Source of the DNA: Candidatus Heimdallarchaeota archaeon
GTDB taxonomy: Archaea > Asgardarchaeota > Heimdallarchaeia > Heimdallarchaeales > Heimdallarchaeaceae
Assembly: GCA_030668825.1 (NCBI GenBank)
Contig: DAOVET010000034.1
Coordinates: 1 to 25,294 of the forward strand
Reading direction: 5' to 3'
DNA length: 25,294 bases
Positions 5,836 to 17,495 of this stretch are shown here, piece by piece. A program made the translations under genes and the position numbers. Under the pieces are notes generated by a model. The model was not told where the DNA came from and did no database searches. It saw only the letters and a list, made by a program, of their open reading frames with translations. The stretch's first letter is position 1. The number at the start of each line of letters is the position of its first letter.

Positions 5836-6675
5836 TTACGAACTTATCTCTAAGTTAAGTTCGAGTTCTCTATCTATTTTTTCCTTAAAATCTCCCATAA
5901 TATAATTCAATACTTCGTTATAATCTACTTCAATTCTAAACAATCTCTTAAAAAATGGGAGGAGAGAATTAAGATCTTTCCTCAATATTCTATATGCTCT
6001 TGTTAAGGGGACAAGAGGAGAACCATATCCTATCGCATCCTTCAGAGCAAAATTCTTAGATTGAAGAAAATCAATTACATAGACTTGATCTTCATACCAG
6101 AGAAGGTTATGTTCACTAAAATCTCCGTGAACATATCTCGCTTTAAACATATTGTAAAGTATGTCTACACATTGTTCTAGTATTTCAGATGGATCATCAA
6201 AGAAATTTTTACTTAAATCTCTTAAAAGGGGAGCGGGACCATGTTCATCTCCTATTAGCTTCATTGAATAGCTAAAACCTGCATATTTGAATGGTTGAGG
6301 CACAGGAAGTTTAGCTTCGAATAGATCCAAATTCTTATAATATTCGAGTTTAGCAAATTGTGCTATCACTTCATATGGGGAAGTACGATGAGTACCATGT
6401 ATAACCCCTCTATGGATGGTTCTATAGAGTTTGTAACTCTTAACAGCAATATTACGTTCATATTTGTCTATACCCCAGCAAACGAAAGCTTCTTTTCCTT
6501 GACCTATGACTTGTTTTACTTCTACTAAAAGTCCATTTTCTATGGCCTCAGCTAAGGCTTCTGTTGTAGATAACTCTGTTATTTCATTTGAAGTATCTCT
6601 TTTTTCTAAATATTCTCTGTTTATCACTTTTGATACACTTCCACAAATAAAGGGGTCAAGACAAAACGATAACAA
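5836..6675 (-). CDS. RIO1-family Ser/Thr kinase/ATPase (start codon uncertain)
   Basis: IGQGKEAFV P-loop, AVKSY, E..NL, PVPQP, catalytic loop VHGDFSEHNLL and metal-binding VIDFLQS. Confidence 0.9.
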   Translation of the reverse strand: MLSFCLDPFICGSVSKVINREYLEKRDTSNEITELSTTEALAEAIENGLLVEVKQVIGQGKEAFVCWGIDKYERNIAVKSYKLYRTIHRGVIHGTHRTSPYEVIAQFAKLEYYKNLDLFEAKLPVPQPFKYAGFSYSMKLIGDEHGPAPLLRDLSKNFFDDPSEILEQCVDILYNMFKARYVHGDFSEHNLLWYEDQVYVIDFLQSKNFALKDAIGYGSPLVPLTRAYRILRKDLNSLLPFFKRLFRIEVDYNEVLNYIMGDFKEKIDRELELNLEISS

Positions 6676-6718
6676 GTGAATGCAATAAAGTAAAAATTGT
6701 AAAAGCGAAGAGAGGATT

Positions 6719-6799
6719 TTATAATTGTAGCTTAGGTGTCATAGTGACTGTTTCTTTGCAAACAATTGTGATTTTTTGTAAAGTTAAACTTGCGATCAT
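6719..6799 (-). CDS. Putative 26-aa leader peptide upstream of the RIO kinase (MIASLTLQKITIVCKETVTMTPKLQL)
   Basis: Manually translated. GGAGGTG SD at 6817-6811, ATG at 6799, TAA at 6721-6719. Confidence 0.35.
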   Translation of the reverse strand: MIASLTLQKITIVCKETVTMTPKLQL

Positions 6800-6882
6800 T
6801 TTCTTTATGACACCTCCATTCTTCTTATCTAAGTTAAAAAATGAAATTAATAAATATGTCGCACTTCGTGATATCTTTAGAA

Positions 6883-7080
6883 CTAGTCATCATTGAGGAT
6901 AATTCTCTGCATATATATTTCACAGTCTTTACAAACCAGAAAATCATAAGTTTCTTTCTCCTTATAATAAATTGTGAAAAACATTGGTTTATGGCATTTA
7001 CCACATTTTATTTCAGATTCCTCTTCCGAAACGAAAATCAGTTCTTTTGTATCTACTTTTGGAGTTATATAGCGACTCAT
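6883..7080 (-). CDS. Small zinc-ribbon protein
   Basis: CGKC...CKDC pairs; likely start MSRYITPK at 7080. Confidence 0.65.
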   Translation of the reverse strand: MSRYITPKVDTKELIFVSEEESEIKCGKCHKPMFFTIYYKEKETYDFLVCKDCEIYMQRIILNDD

Positions 7081-7208
7081 CTTAATCAACTTTGAAACAT
7101 TTTCTTTAGATATTATATAATATACCAACTAACTATTTATTTATTTTCCAATTTTTTTCGCTTGCAAACAAATAATATAAATATGGGTTCAGATTCAGAA
7201 GAAACGAA

Positions 7209-7580
7209 ATGATAGGAGATAGATATAACATCAAATTTATTCTACCTGGTAAAGGTGAAGCAGAGGGAGAATTGATACGCATTAAAGGACCTCACTTAAC
7301 TGAAATCATTAATCGAAACTTACCTATTACTTCTCGGGGTTTAGTGAGAGATGGAATGTTTGTAATCCCTACAAATGTTCTCTATACTATTGAAAAACCT
7401 GCAATTTCCGGGAGAAAAGGGGATATTGTTTACGATTCAAAAGCTAAGGCAATAATAATACTTTTTGAAGAGAAACGATTTGATTCTAAGATGGCAAACA
7501 TTGGGACCATAACAAAAGACCTAAAGATCTTCACATCATTAACAATGTCCTCGGGAGTAAGAATAGAGAGAATTGAATAG
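7209..7580 (+). CDS. Cyclophilin-like fold protein (archaeal DUF369-like)
   Basis: GELIRIKGPHLTEIINRNLPI, EKP...KGDIVY...AIIILF...NIG pattern. Confidence 0.7.
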   Translation: MIGDRYNIKFILPGKGEAEGELIRIKGPHLTEIINRNLPITSRGLVRDGMFVIPTNVLYTIEKPAISGRKGDIVYDSKAKAIIILFEEKRFDSKMANIGTITKDLKIFTSLTMSSGVRIERIE

Positions 7581-10017: not shown

Positions 10018-10091
10018 TGGCAGACCCAAGGCGATTTGAACGCCTGCCACAGGATCCAGAGTCCCGTATCCTTCCGCTAGACGATGGGTCT
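10018..10091 (-). tRNA. tRNA-Gln(CUG)
   Basis: Reverse complement: AGACCCA-TC-GTCT AGCGGAA GGAT-A-CGGGA CT CTG GA TCCTG-TGGC-AGGCG TTCAAAT CGCCT-TGGGTCT-G-CCA. A1-U72, G73, encoded CCA. Confidence 0.93.
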
Positions 10092-10201: not shown

Positions 10202-10930
10202 ATGATTGGTATGAAAAGAATTTTAGTAACTGGAAGTAGTAGAGGATTGGGATTGGAATTTGTAAAACAGCTATTGGAAAAAGGAAATCAAATCATTGCA
10301 TGCAATAGAAATCCTCTAAAGTACCCAGACCTTTTGGAACTAAAAAATAAATTTGAGGATAAACTAGTTCTAATTGATTTAGATGTCTCAAGTAAAGATT
10401 CTATAGATAATGCCTTCACACTGATTTCTAAAGAAATAGATGGTTTGGATATACTGATTAATAATGCAGGTATCCGCTTTGGAGGAGAAGAGAAGTACTG
10501 TGATGAATTAGGTAAATTATACAAAGAGGATTTTGGTAAGATCTTCACAGTAAACTCTGTTGCACCAGTATTAATCGTGGAGAAGTTTTTACCATTAATC
10601 AAAAATGGAAGAGATCCAGTCATTGTTAACATTTCTTCAACCAGTGGTAGTATTGGTAGAAGAAGTCGTAAAGGAGGAGGATACAGCTATAGCGCAAGTA
10701 AGGCAGCATTAAATATGATCACTAAGGCTCTTTCTGTTGATTTGCACGAAGAAGGAATTACTGTTGTTTCAATCCATCCTGGTTGGGTTAAAACTACAAT
10801 GGAATATACAGAAAATGCTCCATTAACTACTTATGAATCTATAAAAGGAATGAGAAAGGTAATTGATACTCTATCAATAGAAAAAACAGGAAAATTCTTC
10901 GACTGGGAAGGTAATGATTTACCTTGGTAA
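10202..10930 (+). CDS. Short-chain dehydrogenase/reductase (C-factor/CsgA-like)
   Basis: TGSSRGLG, INNAG, NISS, YSASKAALNM, HPGWVKT and the C-terminal F.DWEG..LPW. Confidence 0.93.
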   Translation: MIGMKRILVTGSSRGLGLEFVKQLLEKGNQIIACNRNPLKYPDLLELKNKFEDKLVLIDLDVSSKDSIDNAFTLISKEIDGLDILINNAGIRFGGEEKYCDELGKLYKEDFGKIFTVNSVAPVLIVEKFLPLIKNGRDPVIVNISSTSGSIGRRSRKGGGYSYSASKAALNMITKALSVDLHEEGITVVSIHPGWVKTTMEYTENAPLTTYESIKGMRKVIDTLSIEKTGKFFDWEGNDLPW

Positions 10931-10974
10931 GACTCAGAAATTAAATCAACTAAAAGAGATTTAATGAAGAAAGT

Positions 10975-11049
10975 TGGTAGCCCTGAGAAGATTCGAACTT
11001 CCGTCTGTAAGCCTAAACCTACAATGCTTGGCCACTACACTACAGGGCT
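10975..11049 (-). tRNA. tRNA-Gln-like gene with an aberrant 6-nt anticodon loop (UUUAGG); identity unresolved
   Basis: Reverse complement: AGCCCTG-TA-GTGT AGTGGCCAA GCAT-T-GTAGG TTTAGG CTTAC-AGAC-GGAAG TTCGAAT CTTCT-CAGGGCT-A-CCA. All four stems pair; archaeal Gln-type body. Confidence 0.8.
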
Positions 11050-11083
11050 ATAATTGTAACTGATTCTCTTCTTTTCCAGTACA

Positions 11084-11093
11084 GATTTTAAAT
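11084..11093 (-). promoter_or_regulatory. TATA box of the aberrant tRNA gene
   Basis: ATTTAAAATC on the minus strand, preceded by purine-rich AGGAAGG. The identical 10-mer occurs at 11276-11285, upstream of tRNA-Gln(UUG). Confidence 0.55.
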
Positions 11094-11154
11094 CCTTCCT
11101 TTTGAACCTATATAGCATAAATGTTGTTTTCAGAAAAGAGATTAGAAGAAGTGT

Positions 11155-11230
11155 TGGTAGTCCCTGGGAGATTTGAACTCCCGGCGCCAGATTCAAAGTC
11201 TGGAATGTTTCCAGGCTACACCAAGGGACT
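11155..11230 (-). tRNA. tRNA-Gln(UUG)
   Basis: Reverse complement: AGTCCCT-TG-GTGT AGCCTGGAA ACAT-T-CCAGA CT TTG AA TCTGG-CGCC-GGGAG TTCAAAT CTCCC-AGGGACT-A-CCA. Confidence 0.95.
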
Positions 11231-11301
11231 TTGAAAGATGTCAAATTTCTTTGACAACCGTTCATTTCTTGTTTCGATTTTAAATTTTTCTAATGCTCTG
11301 C

Positions 11302-13227
11302 TCATTTATTAGTCCATGAATCTCTTAAGGTTATTATTCTGTTGAAGACTAAGTTTTCAGCTTTTGAATCAACTATATCAACTACGAAATATCCATTTCT
11401 TTCAAATTGGAACCTTGAACCTGGTCCCTTATCCTTTAAGAATGGTTCAACATAGGACTTTATTATTTTTATAGAATCGGGATTAAGGTAATCTGTATAG
11501 TCTTTTCCTTCTTCGGTATCCATTGGATTTTCCTTTGTATATAAACGGTCATATAATCTTACTTCTGCTTCTAGAGCATTGTCAGCAGATAACCAATGAA
11601 TTGTCCCCTGAACCTTTCTACCATCAGGAGATTCTCCTCCTTTAGTTTTTGGATCATGAGTACAATGAATTTCTTTTATCTTCCCAGTTTCTTCATCTTT
11701 GAGCACTTTTTCACACTTAATAAAATAAGCATACTTTAATCTGACTTCTTTTCCTAGTGAAAGCCTATAGTAATCTTCTGGTGGATTTTCCATGAAATCT
11801 TCTTGCTCGATGTATAGATTTTTAGTAAATTTCACGTTTCTTGTTCCCACTTCTTTGTCAGCAGGATGATTTGGAATTTTGAATTCCTCAGTCAAATCAT
11901 TAGGATAATTAGTGATTACAAGCTTGAGAGGATTGAGTACACTCATAACTCTAGGGCATCTTTTGTCCAAATCTTCACGCAAATAGTGTTCAAAGATTGA
12001 CATATCTATCAGTTTTTCTCGCTTAGTAATATTTACTCCTAATGAAAAATTACGTATAGCATCAGGTGTAATTCCTCGTCTTCTCATACCTGCTATTGTT
12101 AACATACGTGGGTCATCCCATCCGTTTACGTAATCTTCTTCTACAAGTCTACGTAACCTTCTTTTACTAAGTACCATATAGGAAAGATTCATCTTCGCAA
12201 ATTCAATTTGCTGTGAGTGGAATATGGGACTTCCATCTTCATTTTCTAACTGATCTATATACCAATCATAAAGTGGTCTATGGACCTCAAATTCCAGAGT
12301 ACATATAGAATGAGTTATCCCCTCAATTGAATCTTCTAAACCATGAGCCCAATCATACATTGGATAAATGCACCATTTATCACCTGTGTTATGATGGCTT
12401 GCATGAAGTATTCTATATACTATGGGATCTCTCATGAGCATATTAGGATGAGTCATATCTATTTTCGCTCTTAGAACTTTTTCTCCATCCTTGAATTCTC
12501 CATTTTTCATTCTCTCAAAGAGGTCTAGATTCTCTTCAATTGATCTATTTTTGTATGGACTATCTTTTCCATGCTCTGTTATTGTTCCCCTCATTTCCCG
12601 TATTTCTTCAACACTGGAATCATCCACATATGCTAACCCTTTCTTGACTAACTGAACTGCGTATTCATATAGCTGGTCAAAGTAATCGGATGCAAATAAC
12701 AACCTATCTTCATAATCAACACCAAGCCAAAGAACATCTTCGATTATTGATTCAACAAATTCTTCTTCTTCTGTGAGAGGATTGGTGTCATCAAATCGAA
12801 GGTTAAATTTTCCTCCATACTCCACTGCATAATTATAGTTCCTATTTATTGAATAAGCATGACCAATATGGAGCCATCCATTAGGTTCTGGAGGGAATCG
12901 AGTATGTACTCGTCCTCCAAATCTACCAGTTTTATTATGGTCTTCAATGATTGCTCTAATGAAATCAGTATCTTCCTGAATTTCTTCTTCCTTCTTTTGA
13001 AGAAGTTCAGGATATTTTTGTTGTGCGAGTTGCTGTATTTCTTCAGGCTTTAATGAATTAATATGGTCAATTTTCTTTTCCAATATCTCTTTGATGCTTT
13101 TAGCATCTTTTTTCAATTCAGGATTAGCTTTCATGATAAGACCCATTACAGGACCTACCGCTGCTTCTCCGTATTCCAAAGCGTTTTCAATAGTGTATTT
13201 TTCGCACAATTTTTCTACTGAAGTCAT
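11302..13227 (-). CDS. glnS: Glutamine--tRNA ligase with an archaeal GluRS-like N-terminal domain
   Basis: DFIRAII...[44 protein letters not shown] (Gln-type Cys, not the GluRS Arg), [25 protein letters not shown] and [11 protein letters not shown]. Confidence 0.93.
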
Positions 13228-15472: not shown

Positions 15473-16612
15473 TCAGATACAGCGATAAACAGCTGTAGGT
15501 CCTGTTTCTTTATATTCCTTCTTTGTTACCCAAAGTTTGTTAAAAGTTTTAAGAGAACTTAATATACTACCACCTATCCAAACAGAATATCTTCTTTCAG
15601 GAGGAGCAACTATCTTTACTTCTGTTGTATCAGGAACAAGTTCAGTTAATTCTCGGTGTAATCTTTCCTTTAATCCAGGAAACATTGTGGTTCCACCAGA
15701 TAAGACGATATTTGAAAACAGATCTCTTCTTAAGTCCACATCGCATCGCTGAACCATTCTATAGATTAGTTCATCAAGGGGTTCTTCTTCTGAACCGATT
15801 ACTCCTGGACTAAAAAGTAGCTCTGGAGCCATAAAGCGTTCTGCGCCTAGTGTTAAGGTTTCTCCGTCCGGCATTGTATAGTCTTTTTCCATACTTGATA
15901 CTCTTTCAGTTAGTCGTAGTTCTTTTTCTGGATTTAAAGCAACATAACAAAGTCTTTCTTTAATATCTAGAACAATTTCTCTTTCTGCGCTTGTTGTTAG
16001 GGAATATCCTCGTTGCTTTAAGAGAGTTCTTAGATAATTAGTAATATCTCTTCCTCCAATATCACATCGATGTATTGCATGAGATATTGCAAAGCCCTCA
16101 TAGACTGGAACAATGTGTATCACACCATCTCCTGCATCAACTACTAACCCTGTAGTTCTTCCAGATGCATAGAGTGAGAGTATTGCTTGCATAGAGATAT
16201 ACATTGCTGGAACATTGAACATCTCAAACATCATCTCAGCCATCTTTTCTTTATTTCTGTTATCGTTCAAAGGAGGTTCAGTTAGCATTATTGGATGCTC
16301 ATTTGGATTAACTCTCAAATCATTATAGAAAGTATAATGCCAGATATTTTCCATTGCTCCCCAATCTTTGACTTGCCCATGTTCAACTGGATAGACAAGT
16401 TTGAGAATACCTCGCATATTCATAGCCTCTTCTCCAATATAGTGTTCCTTTATCCATCCTTCAACATCAGGCATTACAACTGGATGTTTAGGATATCCAA
16501 TGATTGTTGGGAAAACACTTCTTGGTTGATCTTCTCCTGCAAATCCATTCTTCGTAAATCCAGTCCCATTATCTAAAACAAGTGGTTTTGTTTGAAATGC
16601 TTCAACTGTCAT
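15473..16612 (-). CDS. Asgard actin (Lokiactin-like, eukaryote-type)
   Basis: LVLDNGTGFTKNGFAGEDQPRSVFP, YPVEHG..DW, LSLYASGRTTG.VVDAGDG, NIVLSGGTTMFPG and APPERRYSVWIGGSILSSL. Start set at ATG 16612 (379 aa). Confidence 0.97.
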   Translation of the reverse strand: MTVEAFQTKPLVLDNGTGFTKNGFAGEDQPRSVFPTIIGYPKHPVVMPDVEGWIKEHYIGEEAMNMRGILKLVYPVEHGQVKDWGAMENIWHYTFYNDLRVNPNEHPIMLTEPPLNDNRNKEKMAEMMFEMFNVPAMYISMQAILSLYASGRTTGLVVDAGDGVIHIVPVYEGFAISHAIHRCDIGGRDITNYLRTLLKQRGYSLTTSAEREIVLDIKERLCYVALNPEKELRLTERVSSMEKDYTMPDGETLTLGAERFMAPELLFSPGVIGSEEEPLDELIYRMVQRCDVDLRRDLFSNIVLSGGTTMFPGLKERLHRELTELVPDTTEVKIVAPPERRYSVWIGGSILSSLKTFNKLWVTKKEYKETGPTAVYRCI

Positions 16613-17495
16613 CTTTTTTCCCCTTCCTTCTTGCATGGCTTTCTTTGACAGCTCTTTCTTTCTCATCTGTAATGGCTTTTTCCAAATTCTCTAGTCTTCC
16701 TTCAAGTTTTTCAATGCTTGAATCAAGTTTAGAATCTCTTTCTCTTCTAGATATTTCAGCTTGAACATTGTAAAGCATCATTAACTCATGAAAGACCTCA
16801 ATAAACTGATCTGTTCTATAGGGAGCTTTTAGAACTCGCCATCGTTTCACAGTTTCATCAGATCTTTTTTCCATGGTTGAGCGAAGTGCTATTTCATCTT
16901 CACTTGTTAATTCAACACCTTCTTCTTTGAGTTTCTGTATATATTCCTCAATTTTTCGATCTGTTTTGGGAGTTACTTTATCCTTAGTTTTAGCTAACTT
17001 CTTTGCTAGCTTCTCTTCAGGAGTTTTTAATCCAAGTTCAGATTTGCGTGAATCAAATTCTTGATCAACTGAAGGCATAACAGCTGTTTCCAAAGCAGAA
17101 ATTATAGGATTATAGTAACTTCCATAATATCTAGAAACTAGAGCATTTTCTATCCTAACTAAGTCCTCAAGTGGCATTTCAGTTAATTCATTTGGAGTAT
17201 ATCTAGCTGAACGAGCTTTAATCTGCTCTTGAATCTCAAGATATACAATTTGCTCATGGGGGATTTTTTTCTCATCGTATGTTGTCTTATCAATAGTTTT
17301 TTCCATTCTACCAACTCTTTCTTGTAATTCTACTATTCGTTTAACTCGTGATTTTTCCCAACTTTGTCTTTCTTCCTTCTTGCGCTCACGATAGGCCTTT
17401 TTTCGTTCCGCGTCAGTAGCATATTTTTTGGGTCGTCCTGGTCTTTTTTTTTCTTCGTCATTCATTTCAATCACTTTATTTTCGTCCCGAGACAA
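16602..17495 (-). CDS. AT-hook/basic-helix coiled-coil protein, putative DNA-binding
   Basis: KKRPGRPKKYATDAERKKAYRERKK followed by coiled-coil segments at both ends. Its end overlaps the actin start by 11 nt. Alternative ATG at 17465. Confidence 0.75.
   Translation of the reverse strand: MSRDENKVIEMNDEEKKRPGRPKKYATDAERKKAYRERKKEERQSWEKSRVKRIVELQERVGRMEKTIDKTTYDEKKIPHEQIVYLEIQEQIKARSARYTPNELTEMPLEDLVRIENALVSRYYGSYYNPIISALETAVMPSVDQEFDSRKSELGLKTPEEKLAKKLAKTKDKVTPKTDRKIEEYIQKLKEEGVELTSEDEIALRSTMEKRSDETVKRWRVLKAPYRTDQFIEVFHELMMLYNVQAEISRRERDSKLDSSIEKLEGRLENLEKAITDEKERAVKESHARRKGKKDDS

Follow-up and report, generated by a model that had tools for sequence, protein, structure and literature searches.

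The window analysed here is 25,294 nucleotides long and makes up one whole contig of a Candidatus Heimdallarchaeota genome (G000; 2.76 Mb, 33% G+C, 138 contigs), some of whose tRNA genes bear introns. Its minus strand carries a tRNA-Gln cluster headed by a gene for a bacterial-type GlnRS of 641 aa (11302..13227), recognised through Pfam, NCBIfam TIGR00440 and PDB chains. A canonical tRNA-Gln(UUG) gene (11155..11230, minus strand; ARAGORN, Rfam 58.2 bits) lies 75 nt downstream of the GlnRS stop codon, and a canonical tRNA-Gln(CUG) gene (10018..10091, minus strand; ARAGORN, Rfam 53.7 bits) is found further along. Between these two, at 10975..11049 of the same strand, ARAGORN, Rfam, independent contigs, orthologues and pairing counts place a third, tRNA-shaped gene of apparent tRNA-Gln origin, whose anticodon loop, TTTAGG, has 6 nt. 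The gene of an SDR oxidoreductase (10202..10930, plus strand; Pfam, synteny, alignment) converges on this odd tRNA, with 45 nt from the SDR stop to the tRNA 3′ end in the window, and the SDR neighbour is kept in all genomes that carry an orthologue with the 6-nt loop (clade A). The window also encodes an actin-family protein of 397 aa (15473-16666, minus strand; Pfam Actin 432.5 bits), a type of protein typical of Asgard archaea.

ARAGORN calls the odd gene a 75-nt tRNA of undetermined type ('tRNA-???') with a two-base 'anticodon (ta)', the only call of this type among 38 in the whole 2.76-Mb genome. The Rfam covariance model RF00005 matches 10978-11049 over its full length (model positions 1-71 of 71) with 48.8 bits, above the gathering score of 29, and the alignment lacks a single position, which falls in the anticodon loop. 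Reading of the sequence gives an acceptor stem of 7 bp beginning with A1-U72, a D arm with a 4-bp stem and a 9-nt loop containing GG, an anticodon arm with a 5-bp stem (GTAGG/CTTAC) around the 6-nt loop at 11013-11018, a variable region of 4 nt, a T stem of 5 bp with the T loop TTCGAAT, and a 3′ end with discriminator A and encoded CCA. The 7-nt loop with U33 and purine 37 that a decoding adaptor requires is missing, the 6-nt loop being found also in 8 further sequences, and the G000 loop contains neither TTG nor CTG in register and hence no YUG anticodon of tRNA-Gln. Archaeal tRNA-Gln is described in part of a 2022 review as having A73 and, typically, C12:G23 (PMC9499178). The combination of A1:U72 and A73 is present in the window gene and in all clade-A and clade-B genes discussed below, but pair 12-23 is G12-C23 in the window gene and likewise in the UUG gene next to it, with C12-G23 seen in the CUG gene and the clade-B genes. 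Minimum free energy folding of nine tRNAs recovered the cloverleaf neither for the odd tRNA nor for its canonical neighbours, and it predicted a U.G-closed tetraloop for the G012 variant only, so that the idea of a further closed anticodon hairpin is a conjecture.

Could the short loop result from an assembly or sequencing error, a base having been lost from the T run of a normal tRNA-Gln? The homopolymer context alone speaks for this, and we give the reading practically no credence. Logan contigs of runs X1 and X2 (both spanning 10700-11400) and of run X8 (10700-11302), which belong to three other studies, contain no gap and no differing letter within 10975-11049, and near the gene they depart from the window only at 11231-11238. 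None of the sequencing runs listed as containing the locus is an RNA run; the single contig of run X16, a run guessed to be RNA, covers 10764-11009 and ends before the loop. The 6-nt loop is seen, moreover, in seven genomes and two metagenome contigs. Independent contigs and orthologues thus refute the artefact reading, and an added base still gives no YTG in register, just as a preliminary description of this DNA had remarked that no single-base insertion would restore one. The same description had pointed to an intact tRNA-Gln-type body around a 6-nt TTTAGG loop and to the retention of GG, TTCGAAT and CCA, all of which are borne out by ARAGORN, the Rfam match and the pairing of every stem. 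It had also asked for the loop length to be verified, and the X1, X2 and X8 contigs run across the gene without an indel; the missed T that it had invoked to obtain a UUA anticodon is thereby excluded.

Upstream of the gene lies a BRE/TATA-like block, GAAGGATTTAAAATCT (11083..11098, minus strand), at -49..-34 from the mature 5′ end. These 16 nt do not vary among the 7 genomes and 2 metagenome contigs compared; the spacer between block and tRNA diverges, and so does the DNA beyond the block. Inside it, at -43..-36, is the box TTTAAAAT, which gives substance to the TATA box mentioned in the preliminary description. Most other tRNA genes of G000 have a TTTAAAA-type box at about -50..-35 that resembles TTTAAAAT, and we infer that the block is the putative BRE/TATA promoter of the odd tRNA.

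Some variation at this locus deserves description in its own right. Inserts of 2.4-4 kb separate the UUG gene from the odd tRNA in G009 (L046:4124-6540), G012 (L047:3434-7406) and G010 (L048). They encode a 600-690-aa protein with weak beta-propeller matches and, in G012, a Macro-domain protein, and the G009 insert terminates in a duplicated 3′ fragment of tRNA-Gln(UUG). As no integrase was found by Pfam in the G009 and G012 inserts, we do not call them mobile elements. The tRNA-Gln(UUG) gene beside GlnRS in G024, G010, G012 and G004 matches the UUG gene of the window over bases 1-59 only; in G004 and G024 some 30 additional bases within the T loop, at 59/60, separate this part from the remainder and look like a non-canonical intron. 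The third tRNA of G004 has extra bases at the same 59/60 place as its UUG gene (coordinates in G004, L050:13316-13374 and L050:12140-12245). Genes interrupted in this way are missed by both ARAGORN and Rfam. An additional intron-bearing tRNA-Gln(UUG) is present on another contig of G004 (C64, L110). In the family as a whole tRNA-Gln genes are unusually many and varied, G043 having three in tandem within 364 nt (L120:2111-2474).

Orthologues of the odd tRNA and the upkeep of its fold

When the 24 other genomes in the genus were searched at the DNA level, six yielded full-length copies and a seventh a fragment at a contig end. The genomes are MAGs, 63-95% complete, and the relatives are few and not independent; given this incompleteness, an absence here and below means 'not found'. 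According to ARAGORN, the loop of the orthologues is TTTAGG in G024, G009 and G013, TTTCGG in G006 and G010, and TTTTGG in G012. Of two metagenome contigs, one has a further TTTAGG variant and the other a TTTCGG copy that does not differ from that of G010. No version of the gene with a 7-nt loop was recovered by a pattern that left room for 14-20 bases in the anticodon arm, either from the genomes searched (6 loci) or from the metagenomes searched (2 loci). The comparison with relatives suggested in the preliminary description has therefore turned out in favour of a maintained gene, since six other species of the genus and the two metagenome contigs have the 6-nt loop, keep the fold and give no sign of random decay. 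As the 6-nt loop is common to all members of clade A, it predates the split of this clade.

How strongly the gene has been conserved can be judged against four-fold degenerate sites, which were drawn from the flanking SDR, GlnRS and nucleoside-deoxyribosyltransferase-like (NDT) genes. Between G000 and G024, G013, G009, G012, G010 and G006, the identity at these sites is 0.78, 0.59, 0.56, 0.59, 0.45 and 0.45, respectively, versus 75, 74, 75, 70, 67 and 70 identical positions out of 75 in the odd tRNA. Over the six congeners, the tRNA identity thus ranges from 0.89 to 1.00 and the four-fold identity from 0.45 to 0.78. Only 11 of the 75 sites vary among eight clade-A sequences: nine stem sites, position 9 and the fourth base of the loop. 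All nine stem sites stay paired, with two complete compensatory double changes, and the D loop, the T loop, the variable region and the ACCA end are invariant. The fourth loop base is the sole site with three states (A, C or T). The other five of the six loop bases do not change, which means that the loop is not fully free and that it may have a sequence-specific role.

The same constraint is visible when ten third-tRNA sequences are aligned. Bases are paired in 98.2% of the pair cells even though 10 of the 21 pairs have changed on both sides, the covariation score was reached by none of 500 shuffles, and pairing falls to 37-47% when the partners are slid against each other. The 31-39 pair varies between G-C and G.U only. 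In these homologues the cloverleaf has been kept by compensatory change, and the window gene has none of the marks of a pseudogene, namely change at the silent-site rate, broken stems or loss of the promoter. By these comparisons, the fold of the window gene has demonstrably been under purifying selection over a divergence that saturates silent sites. A conserved fold behind an invariant promoter indicates that selection acts on an RNA made from the minus strand and on its tRNA fold, not on an anticodon. The recent pseudogene considered in the preliminary description is contradicted by these figures, the tRNA being 89-100% identical at four-fold identities of 45-78%, with no pair broken.

A second gene type in clade B and the rival readings

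Four genomes without the window-type gene (clade B: G023, G001, G020 and G016) carry another Gln-type tRNA, located between a RIO kinase gene and a small hypothetical gene. In the more distant congeners G011, G017 and G005 this slot holds a normal tRNA-Gln(CUG) with a similar body. The body of the clade-B gene is identical at 62-64 of 69 positions among the four genomes, versus a four-fold identity of 0.47-0.53, and the gene has its own conserved upstream block. Its loops read ATTTATT, ATATTTAT, ATGATCT and ATGTTCT, all of them with an A...T closure and with a pyrimidine in place of the expected purine 37. The two odd types were never found together in one genome in the loci examined. Searched with blastn-short, clade-A genomes yielded no remnant of the clade-B gene and clade-B genomes no copy of the clade-A gene, and Rfam at permissive thresholds gave nothing credible in 6600-7300 of the window.

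Two further features of this second locus were recorded. An element of 21-24 nt in the intergenic region between the RIO kinase and hypothetical genes (6845-6866 of the window, minus strand) is 91-96% identical in G000, G024, G013, G009, G012, G010, G023 and G001, and it lies downstream of the slot that holds the third tRNA in clade-B genomes. The leader of the clade-B gene contains, about 35 nt upstream of the tRNA (L049, L051, L053), the inverted repeat TTGTTAAA / TTTAACAA, which sits between a TATA-like box and the tRNA 5′ end and could be an operator or a leader hairpin.

The origin of the window-type gene shows in relatives outside these two clades. In G004 the slot of the window gene is occupied, downstream of the same promoter block, by a gene with the normal 7-nt loop ATTTGAT and the anticodon UUG, together with a T-loop intron and an A1.A72 mismatch. 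G043, which belongs to another genus of the same family, has a tandem of UUG, third and CUG genes, the middle one with the loop ATTTATT and an A1.A72 mismatch. Only two canonical tRNA-Gln genes are present in the neighbourhood in G011, G017 and G005, so that the odd gene appears dispensable in some relatives. A covariance model (R1) run on 47 genomes of the order found third-type genes, among the matches listed, only in the genus and in G043, with 11 genomes of the genus at 84 bits or more. A pattern of Gln-type D arm plus ATTTATT, which was too strict to catch G023, occurred in one of 400 genomes of the phylum (G043). Origins were assigned by gene position and promoter likeness, as 24 Gln-type tRNAs have pairwise identities of 0.5-0.76, too flat to root. 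On these grounds the clade-B gene is derived independently of the window gene and repeats its pattern of a conserved body with a scrambled loop; surplus tRNA-Gln genes of this family, judged in the same way, have lost the anticodon at least twice and kept the rest.

The T stem offers a separate observation. Pair 51-63 is A51-U63 in both anticodon-less types and G51-C63 in the canonical tRNA-Gln genes of the genus, and the G043 and G004 relatives are without the A51-U63 change. In bacteria, this pair tunes the binding of the elongation factor. By analogy, A51-U63 in both odd types may hint at exclusion from translation.

The orthologue of G004, with its normal loop and UUG, implies that the loss of decoding is lineage-specific, and this could also describe a slow route to gene loss. 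The odd gene might then be a redundant tRNA-Gln copy whose anticodon was hit first, whose uncharged RNA is harmless and whose other parts have not decayed yet. Indeed, the genus has surplus tRNA-Gln genes, the third gene was not found in G011, G017 and G005 nor the clade-B type in clade-A genomes, and the odd tRNA has changed more quickly than the canonical UUG gene, of which G000, G013, G009 and G006 have identical copies. We nevertheless regard this account as unlikely. Since the clade-A split, four-fold identity has dropped to 0.45-0.59, yet no change has broken a stem or touched the D or T loop; the promoter is invariant, and the independent clade-B gene behaves alike.

We consider it very unlikely that the gene specifies a weak ochre (UAA) suppressor or recoding tRNA, its loop being read as U-UUA-GG so as to insert Gln or Glu at particular UAA codons. 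UUUA does occur in the loops of the G000-type genes, G023, G001 and G043, and in the genes of G023 and G043 the loop is formally of 7 nt (ATTTATT, with U33 and UUA), which ARAGORN reports as 'tRNA-Stop'. A UAA-related role owes what plausibility it retains to a single observation, the identity of this loop in two genes that differ in origin. However, the window loop has 6 nt, with no missed base in independent contigs, and UUA can be obtained from it only through a shifted reading, so a stop anticodon conserved in a functional loop is not what the gene family presents. Orthologues in clade A have UUUCGG and UUUUGG, and clade-B loops also contain GAU and GUU with pyrimidine 37. The genome gives no signs of read-through either: TAA is the commonest stop, ending 841 of 1614 ATG-ORFs of at least 200 aa (11 of 21 ORFs in the window), same-frame open stretches split by one stop are divided by TAA in 41 cases, TAG in 26 and TGA in 19, in proportion to stop usage, and the GlnRS and GatE matches contain no internal stops in any genome. 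A bacterial-type GlnRS would be expected to need G36, which also counts against suppression. The ochre suppressor of the preliminary description therefore loses its footing, both because some orthologues have C or T as the fourth loop base and because TAA, the commonest stop, gives no excess of joins; its analogy with ciliates fails in a host that is an archaeon using all three stop codons.

A frameshifting adaptor, with the 6-nt loop reading a doublet (-1) or an 8-nt loop, formed with G31 and C39 unpaired, reading a quadruplet (+1), appears extremely improbable. It would account for the size of the loop and for the two-base anticodons (ta, tc, tt) given by ARAGORN, and the restriction of the 31-39 pair to G-C and G.U would also suit an unpaired position. 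Against it, the would-be anticodon varies between species with no known co-varying site, and charging would still require an anticodon-dependent Glx ligase. We know of no natural precedent for such an adaptor, and literature phrase searches found no description of six-nucleotide or six-membered anticodon loops.

Alternatively, it might be the DNA or an antisense RNA that matters, the element serving as a structure or terminator at the SDR 3′ end, as an integration site or as a boundary element. In every clade-A genome, 20-45 nt separate the SDR stop from the 3′ end of the tRNA, and the nearby tRNA-Gln(UUG) 3′ fragments and variable inserts mark the locus as an insertion target. All the same, we find this highly improbable, in view of the invariant promoter on the tRNA strand, of compensatory changes that keep a cloverleaf and not a simple terminator hairpin, and of the clade-B gene, which follows the same pattern in another context, between the RIO kinase and hypothetical genes. 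From the list of readings in the preliminary description, the branch of a non-decoding RNA is supported, with a selected fold and promoter and no 7-nt loop; the suppressor and the recent pseudogene are not.

Enzymes for Gln-tRNA and a possible role of the RNA

On balance, it seems somewhat probable that the window gene encodes a selected, presumably expressed and non-decoding, tRNA-like RNA derived from tRNA-Gln. Its ancestor would have been a tRNA-Gln paralogue that lost decoding. The RNA would be transcribed from its own BRE/TATA promoter and processed like a tRNA, with the 5′ leader removed and the CCA already encoded, and would fold into a normal L shape in which the anticodon arm ends in a 6-nt UUUNGG loop, possibly closed further by a U.G pair. 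As a 6-nt loop cannot present a triplet in the standard way, the ribosome would presumably not use this RNA as an adaptor. Selection would keep the acceptor stem (A1-U72, A73), the D arm and the T arm.

What could such an RNA bind? The GlnRS of the window scores 687.7 bits with NCBIfam TIGR00440 (glnS; cut-off 425.8) and 636-647 bits with GlnRS chains of the PDB, that of E. coli included, versus 413 with the human one, and over its first ~85 residues it can be aligned with the N-terminal end of archaeal GluRS. G000 further encodes a second Glx-tRNA ligase (C135:22890-24587), 30% identical to GlnRS, and GatE and GatD, both above curated cut-offs (C20:67097-70342). Both routes to Gln-tRNA are thus encoded in this genome, GlnRS on the one hand and the second Glx ligase with GatDE on the other. 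Among the 25 genomes that represent the genus, GatE is found in 24 and GlnRS in 18. A bacterial-type GlnRS together with GatDE in one genus makes an unusual setting: a passage of the 2022 review states that all archaea are without GlnRS (PMC9499178), and GlnRS in other Heimdallarchaeia is mentioned in a section of a 2024 preprint (10.1101/2024.07.04.601786). GatDE, according to part of the same review, recognises archaeal tRNA-Gln via the D loop and A1:U72 and not via the anticodon (PMC9499178), and for this reason we propose a ligand of the enzymes that handle tRNA-Gln.

The RNA might accordingly be pictured as binding to the ND-GluRS/GatDE transamidosome, to the acquired GlnRS or to both without taking part in translation, where it would serve as a regulator, as a competitor or, less likely, as an amino-acid carrier. 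That these enzymes are its targets is a tentative proposal, which we think may well prove wrong. GatDE and GlnRS are present with or without the third tRNA, and their co-occurrence gives the proposed target no support. With similar reserve, one can imagine that Heimdall-type archaea with two routes keep a dedicated anticodon-less mimic of tRNA-Gln, evolved twice, which would dock via A1:U72 and the D arm and either tune the balance of the routes or carry Glu or Gln for non-ribosomal use.

Why does a gene of this kind matter? Annotation pipelines usually throw out anticodon-less tRNA genes as pseudogenes. To our knowledge, no non-translational tRNA function has been characterised in archaea, and literature phrase searches for an archaeal case of a non-translational tRNA found none, so the window gene offers a clean candidate for such a function. 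If the mimic is real, archaea would have their first described case of a selected non-decoding tRNA, and if the RNA acts on GlnRS or GatDE, it would bear on the passage from indirect to direct Gln-tRNA synthesis in a lineage near the ancestry of eukaryotes. If it is inert, it would still warn us that the decay of a tRNA gene may appear very slow. What would be new here, and we lean towards accepting it, is a selected, non-decoding, tRNA-derived RNA in an archaeon, of tRNA-Gln origin and evolved twice.

Comparison with known tRNA systems

The window gene has in common with canonical archaeal tRNA-Gln, and with its own two neighbours, A1-U72, A73, the GG of the D loop, the T loop and the encoded CCA. 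In contrast to canonical archaeal tRNA-Gln, it has no YUG, its loop has 6 nt and it carries G12-C23 instead of C12:G23. The ciliate tRNA-Gln(UUA/CUA) and the bacterial ochre suppressors have a 7-nt loop and a conserved anticodon, in organisms where UAA is a sense codon or is tolerated. The window gene resembles them in a Gln-type body with UUA inside the loop, but its loop is of 6 nt, one base of the 'UUA' varies by species and TAA is the main stop.

The non-proteinogenic tRNA-Gly of staphylococci are amino-acid donors for cell-wall synthesis, with T stems that are weakened for binding of the elongation factor. The odd genes are like them in being extra paralogues that would stand outside ribosomal decoding, and A51-U63 is found in both the odd tRNA and the clade-B gene. 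The staphylococcal tRNAs still have a normal Gly anticodon and receive their amino acid from GlyRS, whereas the window gene has lost its anticodon, a loss that should impede its charging by Glx ligases that depend on the anticodon.

Closer in kind is tRNA-Other of Bacillus cereus, presented in part of its published account as a pseudo-tRNA with a non-translational role that has been recruited into a regulatory RNA (PMC3399842). Both are tRNA-derived genes that stand, or in our case would stand, outside translation and yet are retained; tRNA-Other is expressed, according to a passage of that account (PMC3399842), and for the window RNA we infer expression. The same part places tRNA-Other in a bacterium, at the flank of a genomic island and within a longer regulatory transcript (PMC3399842). 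The window gene, known from sequence alone, is instead archaeal and of tRNA-Gln origin, with its own tRNA-type promoter, a short leader, a 6-nt loop and a second, independent copy. By analogy, tRNA-Other is the nearest described case and the staphylococcal tRNA-Gly a looser parallel. The authors of the tRNA-Other account conclude, in the portion cited, that inactivated tRNA genes can turn into tRNA-like elements recruited for other functions (PMC3399842).
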